This document shows, piece after piece, positions 5,126 to 58,818 of a DNA stretch of 64,000 bases. Under the pieces are notes generated by a model that was not told where the DNA came from, ran no database searches, and saw only the letters and a program-made list of their open reading frames with translations. Every line of letters begins with the position of its first letter. The stretch's first letter is position 1. The position numbers were made by a program, and so were the translations under genes. Source of the stretch: Staphylococcus phage vB_SepM_BE08; sequence record MT596505.1. One strand, 5' to 3'.

Positions 5126-5392
5126 TTAGTCTATAAAATCATACGTTTGTTTAAAAATATATGGTTTAACCGCATAAAACTCACCTTGTACACCTTTCAC
5201 AACATAGTCTCCTTCAGATACTCCTAGAGTTCCTTCTAATGTATCAATACCGAAAAGAATATCAAAATTAACCTCATCATAAAAAGGATGAGCTTTACCA
5301 TTAGTCCAGTCACAAATTTCTTGTTTGTTTTCATCTCCATTATACTGAATATATTCAACTTCTACTGGTTTCTTTTTTGCTTTTTTAATCAT
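5126..5392 (-). CDS. Hypothetical protein (88 aa)
   Basis: ORF between the two paralogs. Confidence 0.5.
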   Translation of the reverse strand: MIKKAKKKPVEVEYIQYNGDENKQEICDWTNGKAHPFYDEVNFDILFGIDTLEGTLGVSEGDYVVKGVQGEFYAVKPYIFKQTYDFID

Positions 5393-5801
5393 TGTTTATA
5401 TCTCCTTTACTATCACATACATTCATGTAAATCAATGACATTGACATATCTTCTTGTACTAAATACAAACATTTAGTCTTAAATTCATCTTGGTTATTTG
5501 TAATAATTTCATTAATACTTTTACTACGGTGTATAGTAGAACAAACTTCTCCTGAATAAGTATTATAATATAATTCTAATATAACTTCTAACTTTGTTCC
5601 TTCAGTAATTTCTTCTTCAATCTCTACAGATATGTTACTATCTATATTAAAGCAACCACTAACTGATATGTCTCCAAACATATCAAAACTAACTATATCT
5701 CCAAAATTATTTTTATAATCTTTTGAAGTTATATTATTTTCTTTTGCCCATTTAATTAGTTCATCTAAACTCATTGTAATTTCTTTTTTAATTTTTATCA
5801 C
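5385..5801 (-). CDS. Hypothetical protein (138 aa); paralog of the 4710..5114 product; GTG start
   Basis: GTG start at 5801 with an AGGAGG RBS 8 nt upstream. Sequence similarity to 4710..5114. Confidence 0.6.
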   Translation of the reverse strand: MIKIKKEITMSLDELIKWAKENNITSKDYKNNFGDIVSFDMFGDISVSGCFNIDSNISVEIEEEITEGTKLEVILELYYNTYSGEVCSTIHRSKSINEIITNNQDEFKTKCLYLVQEDMSMSLIYMNVCDSKGDINND

Positions 5802-5901
5802 GAGTTATACCTCCTATATTTTTTATTACCAACTTACTCTTTCTAATCGTTTTTGATAATATGGTAACTCATCATAGAATTCTCTAGCTTCTGTCTTCCT
5901 T

Positions 5902-6105
5902 TTAATCCTTCTTTTTAAACTTTAAAGTCACTACATCTCTAAAATGTTTATTTCTTGTATGCGTTTCTGAAAGTTTATAATTAGTTATCATTTCAATAAC
6001 TTCATAGTCTACTAGGTTCAGACGAGATATATGAATATTAGTTTCATCTTTTCCGTCAAATAATCTTTTTAATATTTTTATTGTTGGTTGCTCAAAGTTT
6101 TTCAT
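5902..6105 (-). CDS. Hypothetical protein (67 aa)
   Basis: ORF in the array. Confidence 0.45.
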   Translation of the reverse strand: MKNFEQPTIKILKRLFDGKDETNIHISRLNLVDYEVIEMITNYKLSETHTRNKHFRDVVTLKFKKKD

Positions 6106-6137
6106 TTTTTAACCCCTTTTGATTAAGTATTGTCTCA

Positions 6138-6536
6138 TTAATGTTTCACCACTGGATAATGAATATCTTTTATTTTTAACGAACATATGCTGTAATAAAA
6201 ATCACCGTTACCTGCATCTGCATAACATTCACCCTGTGCTATAGGGTTTTGGTTATGATATAAAACAACAGTAGCCAAACTTTCTGATTCAGCACTCCAT
6301 GTATCAAACTTTTGTTGTTCTCTCTCATTCTCTATTTTAACATTTGTAATAACTGCATCTAGTTTTACATTAGTCCATTCTCCACCAGCACTTGCACAAC
6401 AATCTTGTTCACTTTCCACTATTTCTACAAGAGTGCCATCATCTAAAGTCAATGTTTTATCAGTCCATTCCTTGACTTTTTTATATAACAATTGTTTTTT
6501 TATTTCCTTAAATTCTTTATAATTAATTTTATACAT
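6138..6536 (-). CDS. Hypothetical protein (132 aa)
   Basis: ORF in the array. Confidence 0.55.
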   Translation of the reverse strand: MYKINYKEFKEIKKQLLYKKVKEWTDKTLTLDDGTLVEIVESEQDCCASAGGEWTNVKLDAVITNVKIENEREQQKFDTWSAESESLATVVLYHNQNPIAQGECYADAGNGDFYYSICSLKIKDIHYPVVKH

Positions 6537-6564
6537 TTATATTCACTCCATACTTAGTATTTAT

Positions 6565-34149: not shown

Positions 34150-35139
34150 TTAAATTTTAGTAAATGCTTCTTTATTTCCTTTAATATAATTTTCTTTACT
34201 TTCTTTTTCTTCTTCAGTAATCTTACCTGATTCAAAATAATCTTGTATTTTTTGGAGTGCTAACATGTATTTAACATAACCAATAGGAGAGTTAAATTCA
34301 TTCATATGATTTTCATCATATTCTACTAAATCTCCATAGCTTGTTCCTATTTCCATATCTGCTACAATAGGATACCTAATATTCTCTCCTTCATACTCAA
34401 TGTATAAGAAATCAAAAGGTAAGTTTTGCATACAATGTAATACAACTTTAGCCATAACTTTAACTTCATCTGGGTGTGTATCAACTACAATACTATCATG
34501 TACTGTGGCAATAAGTTTAGACTTCATATTTCTAGTTTGAATAAAATCATCAATATAAGTAATTGCCATACTTGTAAACCATGAACCTAAACCTTGTATT
34601 CTAGCATTAAATGATTGTCTTAAAGCTTGATTTCTTTTTTGTTTATCATTACTTGTAGCATTACCTAAAAATCGTCTAAACCCATGTAATGTTTCTACAT
34701 AACCATGTTTTTGTGCAAACTCATGCGTGTCTTCAATCGCTTGTCCTACAGCTGGCTTATTTTTATAGTAATTATCAAATAATTCTTCTGCCTCTTCTAC
34801 AGGCATATTATTTTTACTAGCAAAAGAAAATGGAACGTCACCATACAATAATGAGAAACTTACTGTTTTTGCTTTTGTACGTTCATCAGTAGTTATCTCT
34901 TCCTCTGGTTTATTATACACTAAGCTTGCTGTATTCTTGTGTAGGTCTCCCCCGTGTAAGAAAATATTAGTCATATCTTTATCTTTTGTCATCAAACCAG
35001 TAACTCTGAGCTCTAAAGCTGAATAATCGGCTTGTAAAATTACACCATTGTTAAATCTTGAAACAAAAGAACGTTTAATAGGGTGATGATAATCAAATTT
35101 ATTGACATTAGATGTGTGTGCTACAATATTTTGTAAATT
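34150..35139 (-). CDS. polA: DNA polymerase I (family A), exon 2 (C-terminal palm/fingers: motifs A, B, C)
   Basis: The reading frame continues upstream of the track ORF to about 35139: NLQNIVAHTSNV...ILQADYSALELRV (motif A), RTKAKTVSFSLLYG (motif B), ATVHDSIVVD (motif C). Confidence 0.85.
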   Translation of the reverse strand, partial: NLQNIVAHTSNVNKFDYHHPIKRSFVSRFNNGVILQADYSALELRVTGLMTKDKDMTNIFLHGGDLHKNTASLVYNKPEEEITTDERTKAKTVSFSLLYGDVPFSFASKNNMPVEEAEELFDNYYKNKPAVGQAIEDTHEFAQKHGYVETLHGFRRFLGNATSNDKQKRNQALRQSFNARIQGLGSWFTSMAITYIDDFIQTRNMKSKLIATVHDSIVVDTHPDEVKVMAKVVLHCMQNLPFDFLYIEYEGENIRYPIVADMEIGTSYGDLVEYDENHMNEFNSPIGYVKYMLALQKIQDYFESGKITEEEKESKENYIKGNKEAFTKI

Positions 35140-36236
35140 TTACTTGTGTACAATATAATTTATTTATTATATTGTATCTATTGTCATTTAAACAATAGCT
35201 ATATATCTCTATATAGGACAGACTATATCATATATCATTTCTGTGGTAGGTTTATTGTTTATTTACTGTTTCTAAATTTATATCCTTTATACTCTACAAA
35301 GTCATCTGTTTTTCTTAATTTATCTCTCAATGTCTTATGATTATTCATGTTGAGTAGTTTCATCACCTTATTCATACTATACTTAGTATACAATAGATTA
35401 CCGTCTAAGTCAAATACATCAATTTTCATATTTTTACTTCTTTTAGACTCTTTATTTACATACTCCCACTTATAACCTTTATGTGATTTATGTCTTCCAG
35501 AAATTACTTGACTTATTTTTGATGGGCTAAAATACCCACCAGTTTCTCTTTGTGCTTGAGTGGGTGAATCCCACACCTTAACAATATTACCTTCCATATC
35601 TTTTTGATATACTGCTTTATTAGATACCTTTTTAAGTTGTTCCCTAGCACTATACGTATTTTGTCTACCTTGTTTAGCAGAGTGTAAGGTATTGCCCCTA
35701 TAATCTACCCATTCTAGGTTGTTTACGTGGTTATTCAATCTATTATTATCGATGTGGTTAACAACATTTAGATTAGGATTATTGTTAGGTATAAAAAGCT
35801 TTGCTACTAATCTATGCACTAATATGTTACCCTCAGTAACTGTAACTTGTTTGTACCCTGAATTAATAATCCATGGTTTTAATTCATGCTTAGTAATTTT
35901 ATTTATTACTCTACCTGTATTACTTACTTTATATTTATCATCATAATCTTTCCAAACTTCTTTCATATACTCTTCCTTACTATTCCCTACCACAGAAATA
36001 ATATCCTTGCTTTCGTGGGTGTGTATTGGTTGTGCTACCTCAACACCTAGTCGTTGAGCCTTCCCCATACTTCCATACACTTTCAGGGGCTTGGTTGCGG
36101 ATTCTCTTTATTCTTAACCTTTTTACTGTACCAAACACATTACTGTTTGCCCTTATATATGTTTCCATTATAAGTTAGTAGTTAAGACCTAACAAGTTTC
36201 TCCCCGCAGTTAACAAAGTTTTACAACCCCAATTTA
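35140..36236 (-). mobile_element. Intron (group I-like, about 1.1 kb) interrupting polA within the conserved TGRLASSNP|NLQNI motif; carries an HNH homing endonuclease ORF
   Basis: Exon 1 ends ...STGRLASSNP followed by an in-frame stop. Exon 2 resumes NLQNI.. about 1.1 kb downstream. GC-rich structured segments flank the HNH ORF. Confidence 0.75.
35259..35966 (-). CDS. Intron-encoded HNH homing endonuclease (NUMOD4 + HNH_3 motifs)
   Basis: KEVWKDY..YKVSNTGRV (NUMOD4-like) and VHRLVAKLFIPN...VNHIDNNRLNNHVNNLEWV (HNH). Likely start MKEVW at 35966 with an AAGGAAG RBS. Confidence 0.8.
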   Translation of the reverse strand: MKEVWKDYDDKYKVSNTGRVINKITKHELKPWIINSGYKQVTVTEGNILVHRLVAKLFIPNNNPNLNVVNHIDNNRLNNHVNNLEWVDYRGNTLHSAKQGRQNTYSAREQLKKVSNKAVYQKDMEGNIVKVWDSPTQAQRETGGYFSPSKISQVISGRHKSHKGYKWEYVNKESKRSKNMKIDVFDLDGNLLYTKYSMNKVMKLLNMNNHKTLRDKLRKTDDFVEYKGYKFRNSK

Positions 36237-38465
36237 AGGGTTACTACTGGCTAATCTTCCTGTACTTGTAGTTGTTGATGAGAAACTACCATGTAGTGTT
36301 TGTGTGTTTTTATTAACCATTCTAGGAAGCTTATGAGTAAATGAGTTTCGTTTTGTTCGTATAGAGGCGTAGTATAATAAGTCTTCTATTAGTTCTTTGT
36401 TATCTTCTGTTACTTCTAAATCAGATAATATATATCCTAGAGCTTTAGTATCTGTTTTATAGTCTTCCCAACTAATATCTTGCTCTTTCTTTTTCTCAAA
36501 AGAGGTAGCTTTAACGTAGTTCTGGTCATAAGGTAATTCAAAACCTAATATTTTATACAATAGTTCACTTTTATGGTCTCCTGACCCTATATTAAATTTC
36601 CACCCATCATCTTTATACTTATTTCTGTACTTCTCTATTTCTGGGTCTCTTTCTTTTTTAGGTTTACTAAACTCTTCTAAACCTAGTTCATATAAGTTAT
36701 ATTTTTCTTCTTCAAATTCTTTTACCGCCCAATGTTCTCTTATTTTATTTTCAATTTTAGTTAATTCTAATTCATAGGCTTTGTCATTCTTTTCCATGTA
36801 ATCTAAATCAGCATATAGACCATTACTCTCTATTCTTGCTAGGGTTCTATCTAACCTTGGATAATCTTGTTGCCATAACTTTATTGCTTTAGGTCGTTGT
36901 TGGTCTTTTAATTTTTCTAGTATATTAGAATAAATTCTACGACATACATCAACGTCACCACTAGCATAAGGGTGCATTAGTTCTAAAGGAATCCAATCAT
37001 AATTAAACTTACCACCATCAACTTCATTATATACATCTGTATGTTTTTTAAACCTATTAATTAATTCTAAAGCTGTTTTAAGTGTATATTCTTTACCTTC
37101 ATCACTTAAAGACATATACTCATCCGAAAGCTTAGCTACCTCTTCAAACTCTGAATCACCCATTAACATTGTTTTTGTTAATCGTTCTGGGTGTAAACCT
37201 AATTGAATATATTGCTTATCAGTACTATTCATTTCTGTTTTTTGCTCATATTTATCAAGCTCTACTTCTTTATCCACACTAATGTTTTCAGATAACCAAT
37301 TTTTATATTCTGTTGCTTTAATATTATGTTCTTTTTTTGCAATACTCTTATTATCTTTAATAATAGTAGACATTTTTTCTGACAAGAATTTAAGTAATTT
37401 TCTACTAAACCATTTTTTAAATTCTTCTAACGGTGTGTCATACCCACCCATATCTGTAACCTCATATGCTAAGTCAGACAGGCGTTTAGAATCTGTGGTT
37501 TCTTGTGTTACAGCTAAATACCAGCCTACAAGTGTGTCTTGATTATTTTCAAATGTGTTAAATCCTAGTGTACTCATTAGGAATTTTATATCATATTTAA
37601 TATTATGACCTACTTTTATATCCTCTTTATCAGCTAACCATTCTCTTAAGTAACTTAGTATCTCATCAATATCTTTTTGTCCGTTTTTCCAATTAAAATC
37701 AGATTTATAAATAGGTATTGTGACACCTTGTCCGTTTTTCCAACTTAAAGATACTACTAAAACTTTACTTCCTGCTCTATCTGGTTTTAGTGAATTAGTC
37801 TCTGTATCCCAAGCTGTTATATCTATACCATCATTATTATCTTTTTTTACTTCTTTAGTAAAAATCTCTCTTACTCTTTCAATATCTGTTACAAGTTCAT
37901 ATGACACTTTTTTAGGTTTAAAGGCTTCTTCTCCATTTTTTACAAATTTACCTAATAAATTAAGGTCTGTAACTACATGACGTTCAGCATTTTTATTAAC
38001 ATTAGTGTATTCAATACTATAAGTAGGTAATACCCAAACACCTTTACTTGTATTTTCAGTACTTAATGTTATTTTGTGAGGTACACCTCTTACTGAACCT
38101 AATTTTGTAACGTTTAGTAAAAATTTAATACCTAGTTTACCTAAAGGAACAATAATATCATAATTATTATCAATAATTCGTTTAGTTAATTCTGAGTAAT
38201 AAGGTTTAACTTCTGTTTGCTTTACATCTTGGTATTTAACAATCTTACCGTAATTATTTGTTACAGGTGTTGGTATAGCCTTATACACAAAATCAATATC
38301 ATAATCTTTTCTAGAATTATCTCTTACTAAACCTGAACATCTCTCTAATAACATTTTTAAAGTTTTACCATTTTGAGTATTAAAAAGATTTAATCTTGTT
38401 TTATTATCATCTGTAACTTTAAAATGTTCTTCTCTTATGTGGTCGTATAAAATTAAAGCTTTCAT
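36234..38465 (-). CDS. polA: DNA polymerase I (family A), exon 1 (3'-5' exonuclease and N-terminal polymerase region)
   Basis: Exo I motif ITAWDTETNSL. Ends ...HGSFSSTTTSTGRLASSNP. Likely start MKALILYD at 38465 with an AAGGAGAAG RBS. Confidence 0.85.
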   Translation of the reverse strand: MKALILYDHIREEHFKVTDDNKTRLNLFNTQNGKTLKMLLERCSGLVRDNSRKDYDIDFVYKAIPTPVTNNYGKIVKYQDVKQTEVKPYYSELTKRIIDNNYDIIVPLGKLGIKFLLNVTKLGSVRGVPHKITLSTENTSKGVWVLPTYSIEYTNVNKNAERHVVTDLNLLGKFVKNGEEAFKPKKVSYELVTDIERVREIFTKEVKKDNNDGIDITAWDTETNSLKPDRAGSKVLVVSLSWKNGQGVTIPIYKSDFNWKNGQKDIDEILSYLREWLADKEDIKVGHNIKYDIKFLMSTLGFNTFENNQDTLVGWYLAVTQETTDSKRLSDLAYEVTDMGGYDTPLEEFKKWFSRKLLKFLSEKMSTIIKDNKSIAKKEHNIKATEYKNWLSENISVDKEVELDKYEQKTEMNSTDKQYIQLGLHPERLTKTMLMGDSEFEEVAKLSDEYMSLSDEGKEYTLKTALELINRFKKHTDVYNEVDGGKFNYDWIPLELMHPYASGDVDVCRRIYSNILEKLKDQQRPKAIKLWQQDYPRLDRTLARIESNGLYADLDYMEKNDKAYELELTKIENKIREHWAVKEFEEEKYNLYELGLEEFSKPKKERDPEIEKYRNKYKDDGWKFNIGSGDHKSELLYKILGFELPYDQNYVKATSFEKKKEQDISWEDYKTDTKALGYILSDLEVTEDNKELIEDLLYYASIRTKRNSFTHKLPRMVNKNTQTLHGSFSSTTTSTGRLASSNP

Positions 38466-38496
38466 ATTTATCTTCTCCTTACACTTGTTTAAATAT

Positions 38497-38525
38497 ATGA
38501 TACCATAGAATATCTTTAATGTCAA
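38497..38525 (-). promoter_or_regulatory. Sigma-A-like promoter (TTGACA-17-TGgTATCAT) for polA
   Basis: On the minus strand: -35 TTGACA (plus 38520-38525) directly after the terminator T-run, 17-nt spacer, extended -10 (plus 38497-38502). Confidence 0.6.
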
Positions 38526-38558
38526 TAAAAAAAGAGACAAATTTTTTAATCTGTCTCT
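38526..38558 (-). terminator. Intrinsic terminator overlapping the stop of the HU-like gene
   Basis: Stem agagaca/tgtctct with a 12-nt loop, then T7 on the minus strand. Confidence 0.5.
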
Positions 38559-39968: not shown

Positions 39969-40161
39969 ATTTATTCTTCATCCGTTGTCAAAAACTTATA
40001 AAACTTTATAAATCTTATTCCTTTTTCAATGTACCCTCTTTTGAGTATTTCATATACATAGATTACTTCTTATTACTCTACTTGAGTTTGTATGATACTC
40101 CAAAGGCTTAAATTCCCGTACAACGAACGGTACATATATTTAGTATCTTGTTTTTGATATT

Positions 40162-41271
40162 CTAAATATTGTAGTTAGCTAAATTAATACTTGCATTGAG
40201 GTCTCTATCAAGACTAAAACCACATTCACAGTTAAATATTCTATCTGATAGTTTTAGGTTTTGATTAATAGTTCCACAGTTAGAACAAGTTTTACTAGAA
40301 GGATAAAATCTGTCTGCTAGTATAACTTCAATACCCTTTCTTTTACACTTATACTCTAACTGTCTTCTAAACTCGTAGAAACCTTGTTTTTGTATTGCTT
40401 TAGCTAAATGCCTATTCTTCATCATACCACTTACATTTAAATCTTCTATAACAATTCTTCTAGGTTTGGTTTTCACGATAGAAGTTGTTGTTTGATGTAA
40501 ATGGTTTTTACGAATGTTAGACAATCTTCGTTGTAGGAGTTTAATTTGTTTTTCAAGTTTTATAATATTGCAAGTTTTGACAAACTTTCCTCCTTCTTTA
40601 TTTTTTTGATATTTACGAGATACCTTACGTTGCAATCTACGTAATCGTTTTTCTAGTTTTTTAACTTTTACTGTTTTATTTATGTTTCCATAAATAGTTC
40701 CATCAGAACATATTACTAATTCTTTTATTCCTAAATCAATACCTAGTGATTCATCAGTTAGTTCTTCGTAGATGTTTTCTTCTTCAATAGAAACACTTAT
40801 ATACCAATATTTACCATCAAAAGTAATTCTAGGATTATAATACTTAGTATTCGTTGGTAGTTGTTCTGATGTTTTAACCCAACCTATTCTTTGTAACAAT
40901 ACTAAATTTTCTTTTACTCTTAATCTATGTGTATCATTATAAAAACTAGGTTTTGTTTTCTTCTTATATTTAAACTTAGGAAATTTAGCTTGTCCTTTAA
41001 AGAAACGCTTATAAGAAATACAAGCATCTTTAACTGCTTGTTTAGGAATATTGTTACTAACTTCTTTTAGCCATTTATACTCTTCTGTTTTCTTTAACTG
41101 AGTAATTTCTTTACGTAAAACAGAATCTTGTATAAACTTTTTTCCTTGTTTATAATTTTCTTGTTGTTTTGCTAAAGTCCAGTTGTATATAAATCTTGCT
41201 GTTCCTGCTGATTTATATAATTGTAGCTCTTGTTGTTTAGTAGGTCTAAGCCTAACTTTTTTAGTTATCAT
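40162..41271 (-). CDS. tnpB: TnpB (IS605 OrfB) RNA-guided endonuclease homolog (369 aa), apparently intact
   Basis: RuvC-I GIDLGIKELV, RuvC-II IVIEDLNVSGMMKN, zinc ribbon CSNCG...CECG, RuvC-III DRDLNASINL. N-terminal LRPTKQQELQL..RFIYNWTL. Confidence 0.9.
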   Translation of the reverse strand: MITKKVRLRPTKQQELQLYKSAGTARFIYNWTLAKQQENYKQGKKFIQDSVLRKEITQLKKTEEYKWLKEVSNNIPKQAVKDACISYKRFFKGQAKFPKFKYKKKTKPSFYNDTHRLRVKENLVLLQRIGWVKTSEQLPTNTKYYNPRITFDGKYWYISVSIEEENIYEELTDESLGIDLGIKELVICSDGTIYGNINKTVKVKKLEKRLRRLQRKVSRKYQKNKEGGKFVKTCNIIKLEKQIKLLQRRLSNIRKNHLHQTTTSIVKTKPRRIVIEDLNVSGMMKNRHLAKAIQKQGFYEFRRQLEYKCKRKGIEVILADRFYPSSKTCSNCGTINQNLKLSDRIFNCECGFSLDRDLNASINLANYNI

Positions 41272-41311
41272 TATTTAGCCCACCTTAAGATATGTTATCA
41301 CCTCTACAAGT

Positions 41312-41340
41312 ATTATAACATATCTTAGGTAAAAATGCAA
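41312..41340 (-). promoter_or_regulatory. Sigma-A-like promoter (TTGCAT-17-TATAAT) upstream of tnpB; its -10 lies in the loop of a 13-bp inverted repeat
   Basis: -35 at plus 41335-41340, -10 at plus 41312-41317. Inverted repeat taagatatgttat/ataacatatctta. AAGGTGG RBS 8 nt before the ATG. Confidence 0.55.
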
Positions 41341-41374
41341 CTTAATTTATAAAAAAGTTATAAATTTATATTAA

Positions 41375-41686
41375 TTATCTTTCATCCTTTTCTAATAAAT
41401 TAATTACTTCTTCAAAGCTATTTACATTATAAACTATTGGATGTTCTAATCCTTGTGACTTATCTATAACTGTGAGTGCACTGTTATTATACCCTAAAAT
41501 ATAATTAGTACTCTTATAACTAAATTCTAATTGAAAAGAAGTAGACTCTGAATCAGGTCTAGTATCTTCTTTCTGATTAAGTATTTTAATAGGGTCGTAT
41601 AAGTCTTCTACATATTTGAAATCATCATACTTTTTAAACAAAGTCTCTGCTTTATTCATAAGTACTAATGCTTCTTTTCTATCCAT
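41375..41686 (-). CDS. Hypothetical protein (103 aa)
   Basis: ORF in the array. Confidence 0.55.
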   Translation of the reverse strand: MDRKEALVLMNKAETLFKKYDDFKYVEDLYDPIKILNQKEDTRPDSESTSFQLEFSYKSTNYILGYNNSALTVIDKSQGLEHPIVYNVNSFEEVINLLEKDER

Positions 41687-52756: not shown

Positions 52757-54196
52757 CTAAATTTCAATTCCTCCAAAATTATTATTTATAGTTTCTATCT
52801 TACTTTGTTTTTTATCAAAAGTATTAGGTCTATCTTTACCATTATCTGATAATAATTGTTTATGCTCTGCTTCTTCTTCAGGTGTCTCATCTCTTACACG
52901 CATTTTACTTGGTTCTACTTTTAAGTGAACAAATCTTTCACCTGTATTTGAACTATTTCGTATTTTATCTAAATAAAGTCTTAAGTAACCGTTTTTAAAT
53001 TCTTCATCTTTTTGGTTTACTGCAAGTGCTACTTCCACAGCATTTAATATTTTTCTAGAACCTTCTACATGCTCACTTGTAATAACATCAGCACCGTATG
53101 CTGTTCTATTAGTTTGAGCTAAAGTCCAGCATACAAACTGGTATTGTTGTGCTAATCTTCGAATCTCTTCAAATAATTTACCTCCAGCATCTGATTCTGA
53201 ATAATTTCTTGCATAAGGGTTACGCATCAAATGTGGGTAGTCAATAATTACAACATCAATACGTTTATCATACTTTATTCTTGTATTTACGATTAACTGT
53301 TCTAAGTCATTAGGAGATACTTGCTGTGGCATGTGTTTAGATAAAAAGTACTCACCAAAGAAAGGTCTATTTTCTTCATATTTCTTTTGTAAAGCTTTAT
53401 ATACATCTTCATTTAATTGCATATTCTCATCAATTAAATGCTTTTTCTCTACACCTAACATTTGTTGCTCTGCTCTTAAAATCATTCTATCCATGTTCTC
53501 CTCTAATGCTACGTATAGAACATTTAAACCAGAACGTACATAATTCTTAGCTAGATTAGAAGCCATCAATGACTTACCTCTACCTGTAGGAGCCATAACT
53601 AATCCTACTTCACCTCTAGCAATTCCTCCTTCTATTTGCTCATCAATAGAAGCAAACCCTGTAGAAAATTTATTTTTAGCAATATGCTTTAACTCATGTA
53701 ATTTTTTATCAGTATCTGAAAAGAAATCAATAAACTCACCACTAGTACCAGCAATATCTTTTACTTCTATTTCTTTTAATTTTTCTACAAGTTCTGTTAA
53801 ATTATCAGAATCTTCTTGTTTATTTTCTATAATAAATTTAGTCAAAACATTTTTAGACATCTCTGTTTTAACATATTTATTTATTTCACTATTTATAGAA
53901 TCATCTTCATTATCTAACTTAACTTTTGTTAAGTTATCCATATATTGTATTGTATTAGTAATAGCATCTTCTTCACATTTATTTTTTGTCATTATATCTT
54001 CTATTTTAATAGCTAATGACTCTGTAGATATATGTTCTGAAGTATGTGATTTTCTTTTTATTGCTGTATAAATATATTTCATTTCCTCAGATTCATCTGA
54101 GAATAGATGCTTAGGTAGGTTAGTTAAAACCTCTCTAGCAAAATTAATATCATTCATTGATTTATGAAGGATGACTTCCTTTATTCGTTTACTCAA
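52757..54196 (-). CDS. DnaB-like replicative helicase (RecA-fold C-terminal domain)
   Basis: Walker A GLVMAPTGRGKS and Walker B VVIIDYPHLM in the C-terminal half. Confidence 0.7.
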   Translation of the reverse strand: MSKRIKEVILHKSMNDINFAREVLTNLPKHLFSDESEEMKYIYTAIKRKSHTSEHISTESLAIKIEDIMTKNKCEEDAITNTIQYMDNLTKVKLDNEDDSINSEINKYVKTEMSKNVLTKFIIENKQEDSDNLTELVEKLKEIEVKDIAGTSGEFIDFFSDTDKKLHELKHIAKNKFSTGFASIDEQIEGGIARGEVGLVMAPTGRGKSLMASNLAKNYVRSGLNVLYVALEENMDRMILRAEQQMLGVEKKHLIDENMQLNEDVYKALQKKYEENRPFFGEYFLSKHMPQQVSPNDLEQLIVNTRIKYDKRIDVVIIDYPHLMRNPYARNYSESDAGGKLFEEIRRLAQQYQFVCWTLAQTNRTAYGADVITSEHVEGSRKILNAVEVALAVNQKDEEFKNGYLRLYLDKIRNSSNTGERFVHLKVEPSKMRVRDETPEEEAEHKQLLSDNGKDRPNTFDKKQSKIETINNNFGGIEI

Positions 54197-55821: not shown

Positions 55822-58818
55822 TTACATTTTTCTAATTTCAAATTCTTCTTCCCTATATATTTTTTCACGTTCTTTTGAATGGTGGAATAAAAATCTATTA
55901 GTCATATCTGCAAAATCATAAATTTGTGTTGTATTGTCATCTTTCTTTTTACGTAAAGCACGACCTACACGTTGTAATACTTGTCTTAATGATTTACCTC
56001 CTGCCCCTAGTATAAGTGAGTTAATGCCTGAAATGTCTACACCCTCATCTATTAAGCTTGTAGCAATCATTACTTTCAACTTACCACTACGCATATCATT
56101 TAGTTTTTGTTTACGTATCTCAGAATCGACTTCACCATGTAAAAAATAATGTTCTACATTTAAACCATCGAGTAATTCTGATATATTATTTCCATGGTCT
56201 ATAAAGTTTACTATAATAAGTATCCCTTTGTCCTCATTATACCACTTCTCTGTTAATTTTGCAATAAGTTTATTCCTAAAATTATTATTTATTATACCTT
56301 TCTCATAAGCAACTCGATACTCATCTATATTATCAATATCATTAGGGTTGGCTATAGGTATAATATTTATTGTAGGTTTAGCTGAATGACCTTCTTCTAT
56401 AAGTTGTTTATTCGTTACTCTAGATATAACATCTCCGAATAAACCTTGCATACGCATCCACAAAAGCTCATCTTTTTTATCAATGGAGCCTGTTAAAGCT
56501 ATTCTATATAACGCATTTTCACAAGTCATTAAATTGTTATACCAAGTATCTGATTTTGAGTGATGTGCTTCATCTACAATCATAACCGTTATAGTATCTA
56601 AAAACTCACGCATACGATGATACTTATCATATTTTTTCTTATTCTTATTTCTTACTATATTTTGAAAGTTAGCGTTATGATTTTTTAATCTCATAAGAAC
56701 TTCATTGTCATTCTTACAAGATTTATAAATACCGATAAGTTCATCTTTAACCGTTTGTTCTACTTTGGTTTTTGGTATAAAATTATCTAATAACATACCT
56801 AGTAATTTCTTCTGATTTGTACCTCCTTCAAACTTAGGTAAAAACTCAGTAGCAATCTTCTTACTTATATTTTGTTTAGGTGTTAGTTTAACGCCTTGTG
56901 TAGGGTCTTTAAGGTTAGCGTTAAGTGTAGGTACCATAACAACTGTTACTTGTTGTATGTTAAATTGACCTGCTCCTACTTTACCTACAGGTATATTTAA
57001 TCTTTGCTTTAACCTATCTGCTGACTGATGAAAAATTTCTGTAGAACCTGTAAAGAAAGCTATTCTTTCTCCTCTTTCTAATTGAGGTAATAGTTGGTCT
57101 ATAATACCACTAGCAATCTCTGTATTATGATTAACAATAGAATTAGAAATAAAACTATGTGTCTTAGGCATACATACGTCAAAAGTAGGTATTACTTCCC
57201 CTTCTTCTACACTTTCAACTTTTTGGTAAACTACATTAATATCTGCTAATCTTTTAAGAGTATTTTCTCCTTCTCCCCCTGGGTACAATTCCAATATTTC
57301 TCTTAATCTATCAATACTTATAGAATCTCTTTGAATATATTTAGAGAACTCTTTTTTATTAATGTGTAAGGAATTTCTATAATTTTTAAGTGTATCTCTA
57401 AATCCTTCTATTTTGTTTCCATATTGTGATTTGTATTCTTTATCAAGTATATTCCCTTTTTGTTTTTTTCTTTGTTCTGTTTTGAATTCTAACATACTAA
57501 GTAAATACTTTAATTCTCTTGTTTTTACTCTTAATCTCCCATAATAATTTTGTTCATATCCTTTAACTGTTTTCTGCGTTAAAGAATTATCTACTCCTAA
57601 GTTAAAGAGCATAAGTTGTATTTGTTTTAAAAGCTCTCTAGATGCACTTGTAACTTCCATATCTCTTCCATCTTCTCTTATAGAACTTTCACATTCTAGA
57701 TAACCACTTAGAAAAGATAGTTGTATATCCTTAGGTGATTTTAAAATACATTTAGGAACTTTTTTATCTTTTGCTACCCCTAATTCTATATCATATTTAT
57801 TATAAAAATCTTTAGTAGCTTTCTTATCATGTAAGTGTATTGTTATACCTTTAGACTTTTTATGTGTGTCATAATAAGTTTCTTTACTACTAATAGTAGA
57901 CCAATAATCAGAAACAGCTTTAAGTAATTCTTCCTTGTCATTAGAAAAAGAAAGTCTATGGTCTACTCCCATATAGCTGTCTGCTATCATACACCCTAAC
58001 ACATAAGCCTCTTCAGTACTAACTATCGTTTTGTCTGTACCAAACTGATTATCACCTTTTCTAGATACTAATATATCTCCTTCCTTAATGTCTTCAGTAT
58101 TTTTCCATACAAAGTTGTGTCCTTCTCGTACTAATAAAGGATGGTTATAAGTATTAACAACTTCTATACCTCTATCTGTTTTTATCTTTTTAGTTTTTCT
58201 AAGACCATTTTTAGTAAAATAACTTGTATATTCTACTTCACCATATCTATTTATTAGAGGATATTTAATTGGTACTACTTCTTCTTTATTATCTAAACTT
58301 ATTCCTTTTTCATTAAATATCTCTTCTAAAGTTTTATATCCTTCTGTAGTTAAAATTACAGAGTCTTTAGAAATACATTTACCTCCGTTTGTACTTATAT
58401 GAAGTATACCATTAAAGTAAGTTAAACTATTGAATACAGCATCGTATTGGTAATCTCTTAAAGTTATTTGACCTACATTATCATCTAGTAAATTAATTTC
58501 CTTATCTATGTCTTCTTCAGCTAAGAAACTCTCATCACGTTCATCAGTTATTCCATATTGAAAATTATATCTAGACTGTAGCTCTCCTAGTAACTCTTGT
58601 ACTTTAAATAATAGACCTGTAGGAAATCTATCTCTATCATACTCATAGAAATCTATATAACCATCCCACTGACCTCTTTTGTATGCTGGACTATATTGGA
58701 ATCCTTCTTGTCTTGCACCTAACGTTGTGTGCATCCTTTTTAAAATAATATCCTTTAAATAACTATCTCCCTCCTCAAACTCTATATAAGTATATAAGTT
58801 TTTAACATGTAATTTCAT
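55822..58818 (-). CDS. SF2 (DEAH-type) DNA helicase precursor containing an intein (extein about 580 aa)
   Basis: Walker A is split: ISTNGGK|C....HN|TEIASG. DEAH motif MIVDEAHH. Motif VI QVLQRVGRALR. Confidence 0.85.
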   Translation of the reverse strand: MKLHVKNLYTYIEFEEGDSYLKDIILKRMHTTLGARQEGFQYSPAYKRGQWDGYIDFYEYDRDRFPTGLLFKVQELLGELQSRYNFQYGITDERDESFLAEEDIDKEINLLDDNVGQITLRDYQYDAVFNSLTYFNGILHISTNGGKCISKDSVILTTEGYKTLEEIFNEKGISLDNKEEVVPIKYPLINRYGEVEYTSYFTKNGLRKTKKIKTDRGIEVVNTYNHPLLVREGHNFVWKNTEDIKEGDILVSRKGDNQFGTDKTIVSTEEAYVLGCMIADSYMGVDHRLSFSNDKEELLKAVSDYWSTISSKETYYDTHKKSKGITIHLHDKKATKDFYNKYDIELGVAKDKKVPKCILKSPKDIQLSFLSGYLECESSIREDGRDMEVTSASRELLKQIQLMLFNLGVDNSLTQKTVKGYEQNYYGRLRVKTRELKYLLSMLEFKTEQRKKQKGNILDKEYKSQYGNKIEGFRDTLKNYRNSLHINKKEFSKYIQRDSISIDRLREILELYPGGEGENTLKRLADINVVYQKVESVEEGEVIPTFDVCMPKTHSFISNSIVNHNTEIASGIIDQLLPQLERGERIAFFTGSTEIFHQSADRLKQRLNIPVGKVGAGQFNIQQVTVVMVPTLNANLKDPTQGVKLTPKQNISKKIATEFLPKFEGGTNQKKLLGMLLDNFIPKTKVEQTVKDELIGIYKSCKNDNEVLMRLKNHNANFQNIVRNKNKKKYDKYHRMREFLDTITVMIVDEAHHSKSDTWYNNLMTCENALYRIALTGSIDKKDELLWMRMQGLFGDVISRVTNKQLIEEGHSAKPTINIIPIANPNDIDNIDEYRVAYEKGIINNNFRNKLIAKLTEKWYNEDKGILIIVNFIDHGNNISELLDGLNVEHYFLHGEVDSEIRKQKLNDMRSGKLKVMIATSLIDEGVDISGINSLILGAGGKSLRQVLQRVGRALRKKKDDNTTQIYDFADMTNRFLFHHSKEREKIYREEEFEIRKM
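57124..58377 (-). mobile_element. Intein (418 aa) with a LAGLIDADG homing endonuclease, inserted in the helicase P-loop
   Basis: Block A CISKDSVILTTEGY, block B TYNHPLLV, LAGLIDADG-like LGCMIADSYMG and FLSGYLECES, block G SIVNHN followed by extein Thr. Intein spans residues 148-565. Confidence 0.8.

Follow-up and report, generated by a model that had tools for sequence, protein, structure and literature searches.

A predicted class 1 intein with a LAGLIDADG endonuclease in the Walker A loop of the UvsW-like helicase of Staphylococcus phage vB_SepM_BE08

Introduction

The yeast VMA1 intein is a P-loop intein. Previous studies described the P-loops of ATPases as a recurrent intein insertion site, and the inteins of DnaB site b, MCM site a and RFC-S site a likewise lie within the Walker A motif (P-loop) of an NTPase (PMC4760082). 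Introns and inteins have been described as common in the core genes of spounaviruses (PMC7409376), and a passage of PMC5526547 that cites Kwan et al. 2005 assigns a Hint domain to the Twort helicase. Phages Twillingate and Terranova (MH321491, MH542234), both Sepunavirus (Twortvirinae, Herelleviridae) with S. epidermidis as host, have a coding sequence (CDS) whose GenBank product name is "intein-containing DNA helicase UvsW precursor", with a mat_peptide "intein" at locus positions 5303-6556 in Twillingate and a joined "DNA helicase" mat_peptide in Terranova; the intein is mentioned in a genome announcement (PMC6597688), and the label "putative helicase with intein" is given in the records of phages S25-3 and S25-4. 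Here we describe the same gene in a stretch of 64,000 nucleotides (nt) from Staphylococcus phage vB_SepM_BE08 (MT596505.1, hereafter the window), and we conclude with high confidence that an insert of 418 amino acids (aa), in frame between K147 and T566 of the UvsW-like superfamily 2 (SF2) helicase of this Sepunavirus (Herelleviridae) phage of S. epidermidis, represents a canonical class 1 intein that bears a LAGLIDADG homing endonuclease of the double-motif type.

Results

A single unbroken open reading frame (ORF; 55822..58818, minus strand, 998 aa) spans the two exteins and the insert, and this ORF, its Pfam domains and its match to T4 UvsW mark it as the precursor gene of an intein-containing UvsW-like SF2 DNA helicase; all parts of the gene given below lie on the same strand. 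The insert occupies residues 148-565 (418 aa, 1254 bp; window 57124-58377) between K147 and T566 of the Walker A loop (TNGGK|TE), limits that an original prediction, made from the letters of the window, had given exactly to the base. At the 5' junction the protein reads ...FNGILHISTNGGK followed by CISKDSVILTTEGY, the upstream residues being HISTNGGK, and at the 3' junction, 418 residues later, ...FISNSIVNHN is followed by TEIASGIIDQ. The N-extein (residues 1-147; 58378..58818) aligns to T4 UvsW residues 32-144 and ends in the first half of the Walker A motif, STNGGK, read from the sequence at 58378-58395. The C-extein (residues 566-998 and the stop codon; 55822..57123) aligns to T4 UvsW residues 220-456, contains the Walker B motif DEAH (precursor residues 749-752), and begins with Thr566, which is the predicted +1 nucleophile and also the Thr of GKT. 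In-silico deletion of residues 148-565 left 580 aa with a contiguous TNGGKTEIASG, as expected from the proposal that the Walker A motif is split, and the calculated masses were 115.6 kDa for the precursor, 67.2 kDa for the ligated helicase and 48.4 kDa for the free intein.

The intein (57124..58377) combines a class 1 splicing domain with a LAGLIDADG endonuclease domain that interrupts it, an assignment to which the family models PF14890 and TIGR01445, the empty allele described below and the Twillingate mat_peptide (equivalent to window 57124-58377) all contribute. Blocks A and B, two LAGLIDADG-like motifs and a terminal HN before Thr, all named in the original prediction, were each located in the ORF. 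Block A (CISKDSVILTTEGY, residues 148-161; 58336..58377) begins with Cys148, the predicted first nucleophile, directly after the N-extein, and block B holds the TxxH motif as TYNH (residues 223-226; 58141..58152). LAGLIDADG motif 1 is LGCMIADSY (residues 274-282; 57973..57999) with Asp280 as the predicted catalytic acid, and motif 2 is LSGYLECES (residues 370-378; 57685..57711) with Glu377 in the same role, so the endonuclease has two motifs (LGCMIAD280SY and LSGYLECE377S) with an acid in each. Blocks F and G (EVIPTFDVCMPKTHSFISNSIVNHN, residues 541-565; 57124..57198) end with the penultimate His564 and the terminal Asn565, and the C-terminal ...THSFISNSIVNHN is followed by the +1 residue T566, as in class 1 inteins.

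The match of the insert to intein and endonuclease families was far above chance. In a scan with hidden Markov models, Pfam Intein_splicing (PF14890) matched residues 154-565 over the whole profile (1-155/155; E-value 2.1e-13, 50.8 bits, cut-off 35.8), the match to NCBIfam intein_Nterm (TIGR01445) began exactly at residue 148 (27.0 bits, cut-off 24.5), and Pfam LAGLIDADG_3 (PF14528) matched residues 365-439 (57502-57726; E-value 1.3e-14, 54.7 bits, cut-off 22.5), a region that encloses motif 2. Moreover, the intein part of the intein-containing GyrA model aligned to the entire segment. The identification of an intein with a LAGLIDADG endonuclease is thus borne out by models of both databases above their curated cut-offs. 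We also built a family profile from an alignment of nine related inteins (41-100% identical), which matched the solved structures of the Mxe GyrA intein (4e-15), the V-ATPase inteins 7qss/7qsu (about 5e-13) and PI-PfuI (1dq3, 6e-12), as well as PI-PkoII and the DnaB and RadA mini-inteins. In these alignments, the C-terminal blocks F and G aligned to the C-terminus of the Mxe GyrA intein, motif 1 aligned with LGYLIADG of the V-ATPase intein 7qss/7qsu, and the Glu of motif 2 aligned with the second-motif Asp of 7qss; the archaeal V-ATPase inteins 7qss/7qsu were also the best solved relatives of the endonuclease region. Compared with the window intein, the P-loop inteins of other ATPases belong to another host family and are distant in sequence (E-values of about 1e-10 to 1e-13). 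Invariant among the nine inteins were (intein numbering) Cys1, T76 and H79 of block B, E230 of motif 2, T398, D400 and THSFI of block F, and the terminal H417 and N418; the acid of motif 1 was D in all except BSP10, where it was E, and KDK of block D and T.D..MP.THSFI of block F were kept in 9/9.

The counterpart of the gene in phage phiIBB-SEP1 (SEP1_046; 1743 nt, 580 aa) has no intein. When nt 442-1695 were removed from the window gene and the remainder was set directly against the SEP1_046 allele, the two were of equal length and differed at 21/1743 nt with a single amino acid change, V193I. This intein-less homologue, of the kind against which the original prediction was to be checked, lacks exactly the 1254-bp segment, giving a clean indel between ...GGTAAA and AC(A/C)GAG. 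The DNA junctions of the window read ...GGAGGTAAA|TGTATT... and ...AATCATAAT|ACAGAG..., and that of SEP1 reads ...GGAGGTAAA|ACCGAG...; the intein-less SEP1_046 site is ...ACAAACGGAGGTAAA|ACCGAGATTGCTAGTGG..., with the insertion at gene position 441, and the predicted spliced junction peptide is ...STNGGKTEIASG..., that is, STNGGK-TEIASGIIDQLLPQLER. The segment is therefore an in-frame insert whose site is empty in an orthologue and whose removal rebuilds the host motif, as in an intein. The insert is distributed sporadically: only 16 of 100 matching phage records cover at least 80% of the gene, and others cover about 57-58% of it in two pieces, that is, without the insert.

All 21 differences between the window and SEP1 fall within positions 39-760 of the 1743-nt spliced gene (window 58059-58780), around the insertion position 441, and the last approximately 980 nt of the spliced gene contain none. 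The pattern is a mosaic among Sepunavirus alleles, and a tie between this cluster and the intein could not be made.

Outside the insert, the Pfam domains UvsW_N (PF21241, residues 23-76, 29.5 bits against a cut-off of 25.3), ResIII (677-778) and Helicase_C (856-957) were found, so that UvsW_N is combined with an SF2 core (Walker A, DEAH, Helicase_C). The best solved relative of the precursor was T4 UvsW (2oca, E-value 8.2e-28), and the E-value fell to 5e-30 for the spliced protein. UvsW of T4 is a recombination and repair helicase acting on branched DNA, and it has no intein. The spliced protein aligned to it without a gap over the junction (...ilhistnggkteiasgiidq... against ...ilnlptsagrsliqallary...), and therefore the flanks together restore a Walker A motif that lines up with that of a solved homologue, in agreement with the P-loop reconstruction proposed originally. 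T4 UvsW (2oca, 1rif) thus shares UvsW_N and the SF2 core with the window protein in an alignment continuous through Walker A, whereas the window protein has about 100 additional aa between motifs I and II that are unaligned.

The original prediction had called the host a replicative SF2 helicase; the SF2 helicase part of this description held and can be narrowed to UvsW-like, whereas "replicative" did not hold. The Pfam scan gave no DnaB match in ORF 55822-58818, and the DnaB/gp41-type helicase is a separate ORF at 52757-54196 (DnaB_C, E-value 2.9e-13), the Terranova counterpart of which is annotated Helicase_T4gp41; a DnaB-like helicase is among the herellevirus core genes (PMC7409376). A replicative host of DnaB/gp41 type was therefore rejected, with UvsW_N present and DnaB_C in a different gene, and the host protein is, judged by its domains, an SF2 UvsW-like helicase.

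Searching with the intein by tblastn, we found 87 phage records that cover at least 80% of it. Full-length matches at or above about 37% identity came from Staphylococcus, Listeria, Enterococcus and Bacillus phages, the annotated ones nearly all in genes named DNA helicase or UvsW, and the taxonomy retrieved for the relatives was Herelleviridae, except for 184DA (Caudoviricetes only). The insertion point GGK|TE is common to the window, Twillingate, S25-3, Quidividi, Twort, 184DA, LMTA-148 and iF6. At the level of protein, the window intein is 100% identical to those of PG-2021_23 and vB_SepM_BE25, and 99.5% identical to those of Twillingate and Terranova, which have the same gene, insertion point and boundaries; with whole-gene DNA identities of 99.6% (Terranova) and 99.0% (Twillingate), these two differ from the window by a few point differences and in nothing of substance. 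The inteins of Twort ORF006, Quidividi and phiIPLA-C1C have the same GGK|TE site and architecture (420 aa), but are only 63-65% identical to the window intein in protein and about 74% in DNA, values that set them apart as a second intein lineage. Further away, the inteins of Listeria phage LMTA-148, Enterococcus phage iF6 and Bacillus phages BSP10, Bp8p and phiAGATE are 39-42% identical to that of the window and 424-432 aa long; they are full-length homologues that keep all splicing and endonuclease residues, and the shared GGK|TE site was checked in LMTA-148 and iF6. Block F has His in the Listeria, Enterococcus and Bacillus inteins, whereas it has Cys in the Staphylococcus lineage, and the annotation "intein containing DNA helicase" occurs in several records of the former group. 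Weaker similarity was seen to a helicase intein of a Pectobacterium phage (23%), the ICP1 nrdA inteins, the Silviavirus DNA polymerase inteins and the SPbeta bnrdE intein.

Three variants were seen among the relatives. Phage vB_SurM-PSU6 (L010 2201-3466) has a homologous intein of 49% aa identity three codons upstream in the same P-loop (ATN|SGKTE), with Ser, not Thr, as the +1 residue; therefore members of the intein family are found at two sites separated by 9 nt. In BSP10, the CDS annotated "putative intein containing DNA helicase" (L009 1760-5696; 4176 nt, about 1391 aa) exceeds the other intein-containing helicases by about 390 aa and so may include a second insertion. The helicase genes of vB_SsapH-Golestan-100 and S2G3 match the intein only in 2-3 pieces, which lie within about 800 bp and amount to 45-64% of it, and these segments may be shortened, endonuclease-degenerate derivatives.

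When the window was compared with the Kayvirus phage S25-3, the inteins differed at 1/1254 nt, whereas the N-exteins were 76.4% and the C-exteins 77.9% identical, and the near-identity fell to about 77% within 6 nt upstream and at +3 to +7 downstream of the intein. Such near-identity of the intein across phage genera, against exteins of about 77%, points to a recent horizontal transfer. Conversely, the exteins of Quidividi are 96.8-99.0% identical to those of the window, and its intein at the same site (L004 2001-3260) is Twort-like, with 73.8% nt and 64.5% aa identity. Taken with the sporadic distribution, the S25-3 and Quidividi patterns are those expected of an element that spreads horizontally among phages in co-infection. 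We also searched the flanks for a Kayvirus-like co-conversion tract and found no long one; apart from position +3 (ACA), which agrees with S25-3, the flanks are Sepunavirus-like. In comparisons of the window intein with 184DA, Quidividi and Twort, the ratio of nonsynonymous to synonymous substitution rates (dN/dS) was 0.14-0.15 for the splicing domain and 0.15-0.31 for the endonuclease region. With ratios this low, both parts therefore appear to be under purifying selection, which suggests that the endonuclease is still functional.

Two intein lineages, one S25-3-like and one Twort-like, thus occupy one and the same site in Sepunavirus exteins of 97-99% identity.

Two further insertions were observed in the window. 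The family A DNA polymerase gene, intact in Terranova, is split in the window (34150-38540, minus strand) by an insert at about 35120-36237. Its N-part ORF (36234-38540, minus strand, 768 aa) and C-part ORF (34150-34995, minus strand, 281 aa) are separated by an ORF for a NUMOD4 and HNH_3 endonuclease (35259-36080, minus strand, 273 aa), which is flanked by sub-threshold Intron_gpI matches (19.8 and 17.8 bits; gathering score 50); the insert is probably a group I intron with a homing endonuclease gene. In addition, a 1.4-kb insertion relative to Terranova lies at 39998-41381 on the minus strand. It contains an IS605 OrfB/TnpB-type ORF (40162-41271, minus strand, 369 aa) with HTH_OrfB_IS605, OrfB_IS605 and Cas12f1-like TNB matches, and a RAGATH-18 RNA motif (RF03064, 61 bits) is located directly 3' of this ORF at 40018-40106. 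Twillingate has an "IS605 OrfB transposase" elsewhere, between a winged helix-turn-helix regulator and a DnaB-like helicase.

Discussion

We infer that splicing and cleavage both occur. By the standard class 1 pathway, the 115.6-kDa precursor would be translated and then undergo an N-S acyl shift at Cys148; Thr566 would attack the resulting thioester (transesterification), Asn565 would cyclise with the help of His564 and free the 48.4-kDa intein, and an O-N shift would leave a normal peptide bond in a 67.2-kDa helicase with an intact TNGGKTE P-loop. The unspliced precursor is expected to be ATPase-dead, because the insert parts the Walker A Lys from the next Thr, and the dependence of helicase function on splicing, as stated in the original prediction, is a sound deduction. 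In co-infected cells, the endonuclease domain would cleave alleles that lack the intein at the conserved site that encodes the P-loop, and repair after the cut would copy the intein in (homing).

Several points weigh against this account. The flanks are nearly without co-conversion relative to S25-3, which is unusual for simple homing at 77% allele identity, and both phages may have acquired the intein from unsampled intermediates. Motif 1 ends in ADS instead of ADG in the Staphylococcus lineage, which could affect activity, and the literature searched gave no experimental report of splicing or endonuclease cleavage for this intein. The same two observations on motif 1 and on cleavage data, and the partial matches in several pieces in Golestan-100 and S2G3, which suggest degenerate derivatives in the family, would fit an intein that splices but has an inactive endonuclease, inherited vertically or spread by ordinary recombination without homing. 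We consider this unlikely, since the catalytic acids of both motifs and the block D lysines are kept in all nine inteins, the endonuclease region has the low dN/dS values given above, and the intein changes by one nucleotide between genera whose exteins diverge by about 23%, with a sharp switch of identity at its boundaries.

A role as a conditional switch, in which splicing would respond to redox state, metal ions or temperature and so set when the UvsW-like helicase becomes active in infection, has a precedent in the P-loop inteins of mycobacterial DnaB, for which conditional splicing has been documented (PMC7360933, PMC8557812), and the Staphylococcus lineage has a block F Cys (FDVCMP) in addition to Cys148. 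This Cys is replaced by His in the Listeria, Enterococcus and Bacillus relatives, however, and sister phages live without the intein and hence with no apparent regulatory need, so we hold such co-option to be very improbable; if it did delay the activation of the helicase, a case to which we give equally little credence, the near-identical Kayvirus and Sepunavirus copies would then reflect selection as well as homing. Two other readings of the 418-aa segment, as an accessory domain that the helicase keeps permanently and as an intron removed at the RNA level, together have a negligible probability. Group I introns are indeed numerous in these phages (PMC6597688), but the reading frame runs unbroken through the segment, its HINT and LAGLIDADG profile matches exceed their thresholds, and a scan of window 56900-58600 gave no Rfam family match even at E-values up to 1, which together exclude an RNA-level intron; an accessory domain is excluded by the empty alleles, 99% identical and without exactly this segment. 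We therefore retain the class 1 intein with a homing endonuclease as the explanation of the insert.

The intein is already annotated and published for near-identical phages and is an ordinary member of a well-known kind; P-loop inteins in ATPases of DNA metabolism are a textbook pattern, and the discovery value of this copy is small. For the annotation of these genomes, the gene calling is confirmed as one 998-aa precursor and not two genes, and the intein must be masked in helicase-based phylogenies or clustering of these phages. Further, the Sepunavirus and Kayvirus pair, with one nucleotide of difference in the intein and about 23% divergence in the exteins, is a clean natural example of what appears to be recent intein transfer, and it could be used for the study of homing between therapeutic staphylococcal phages.

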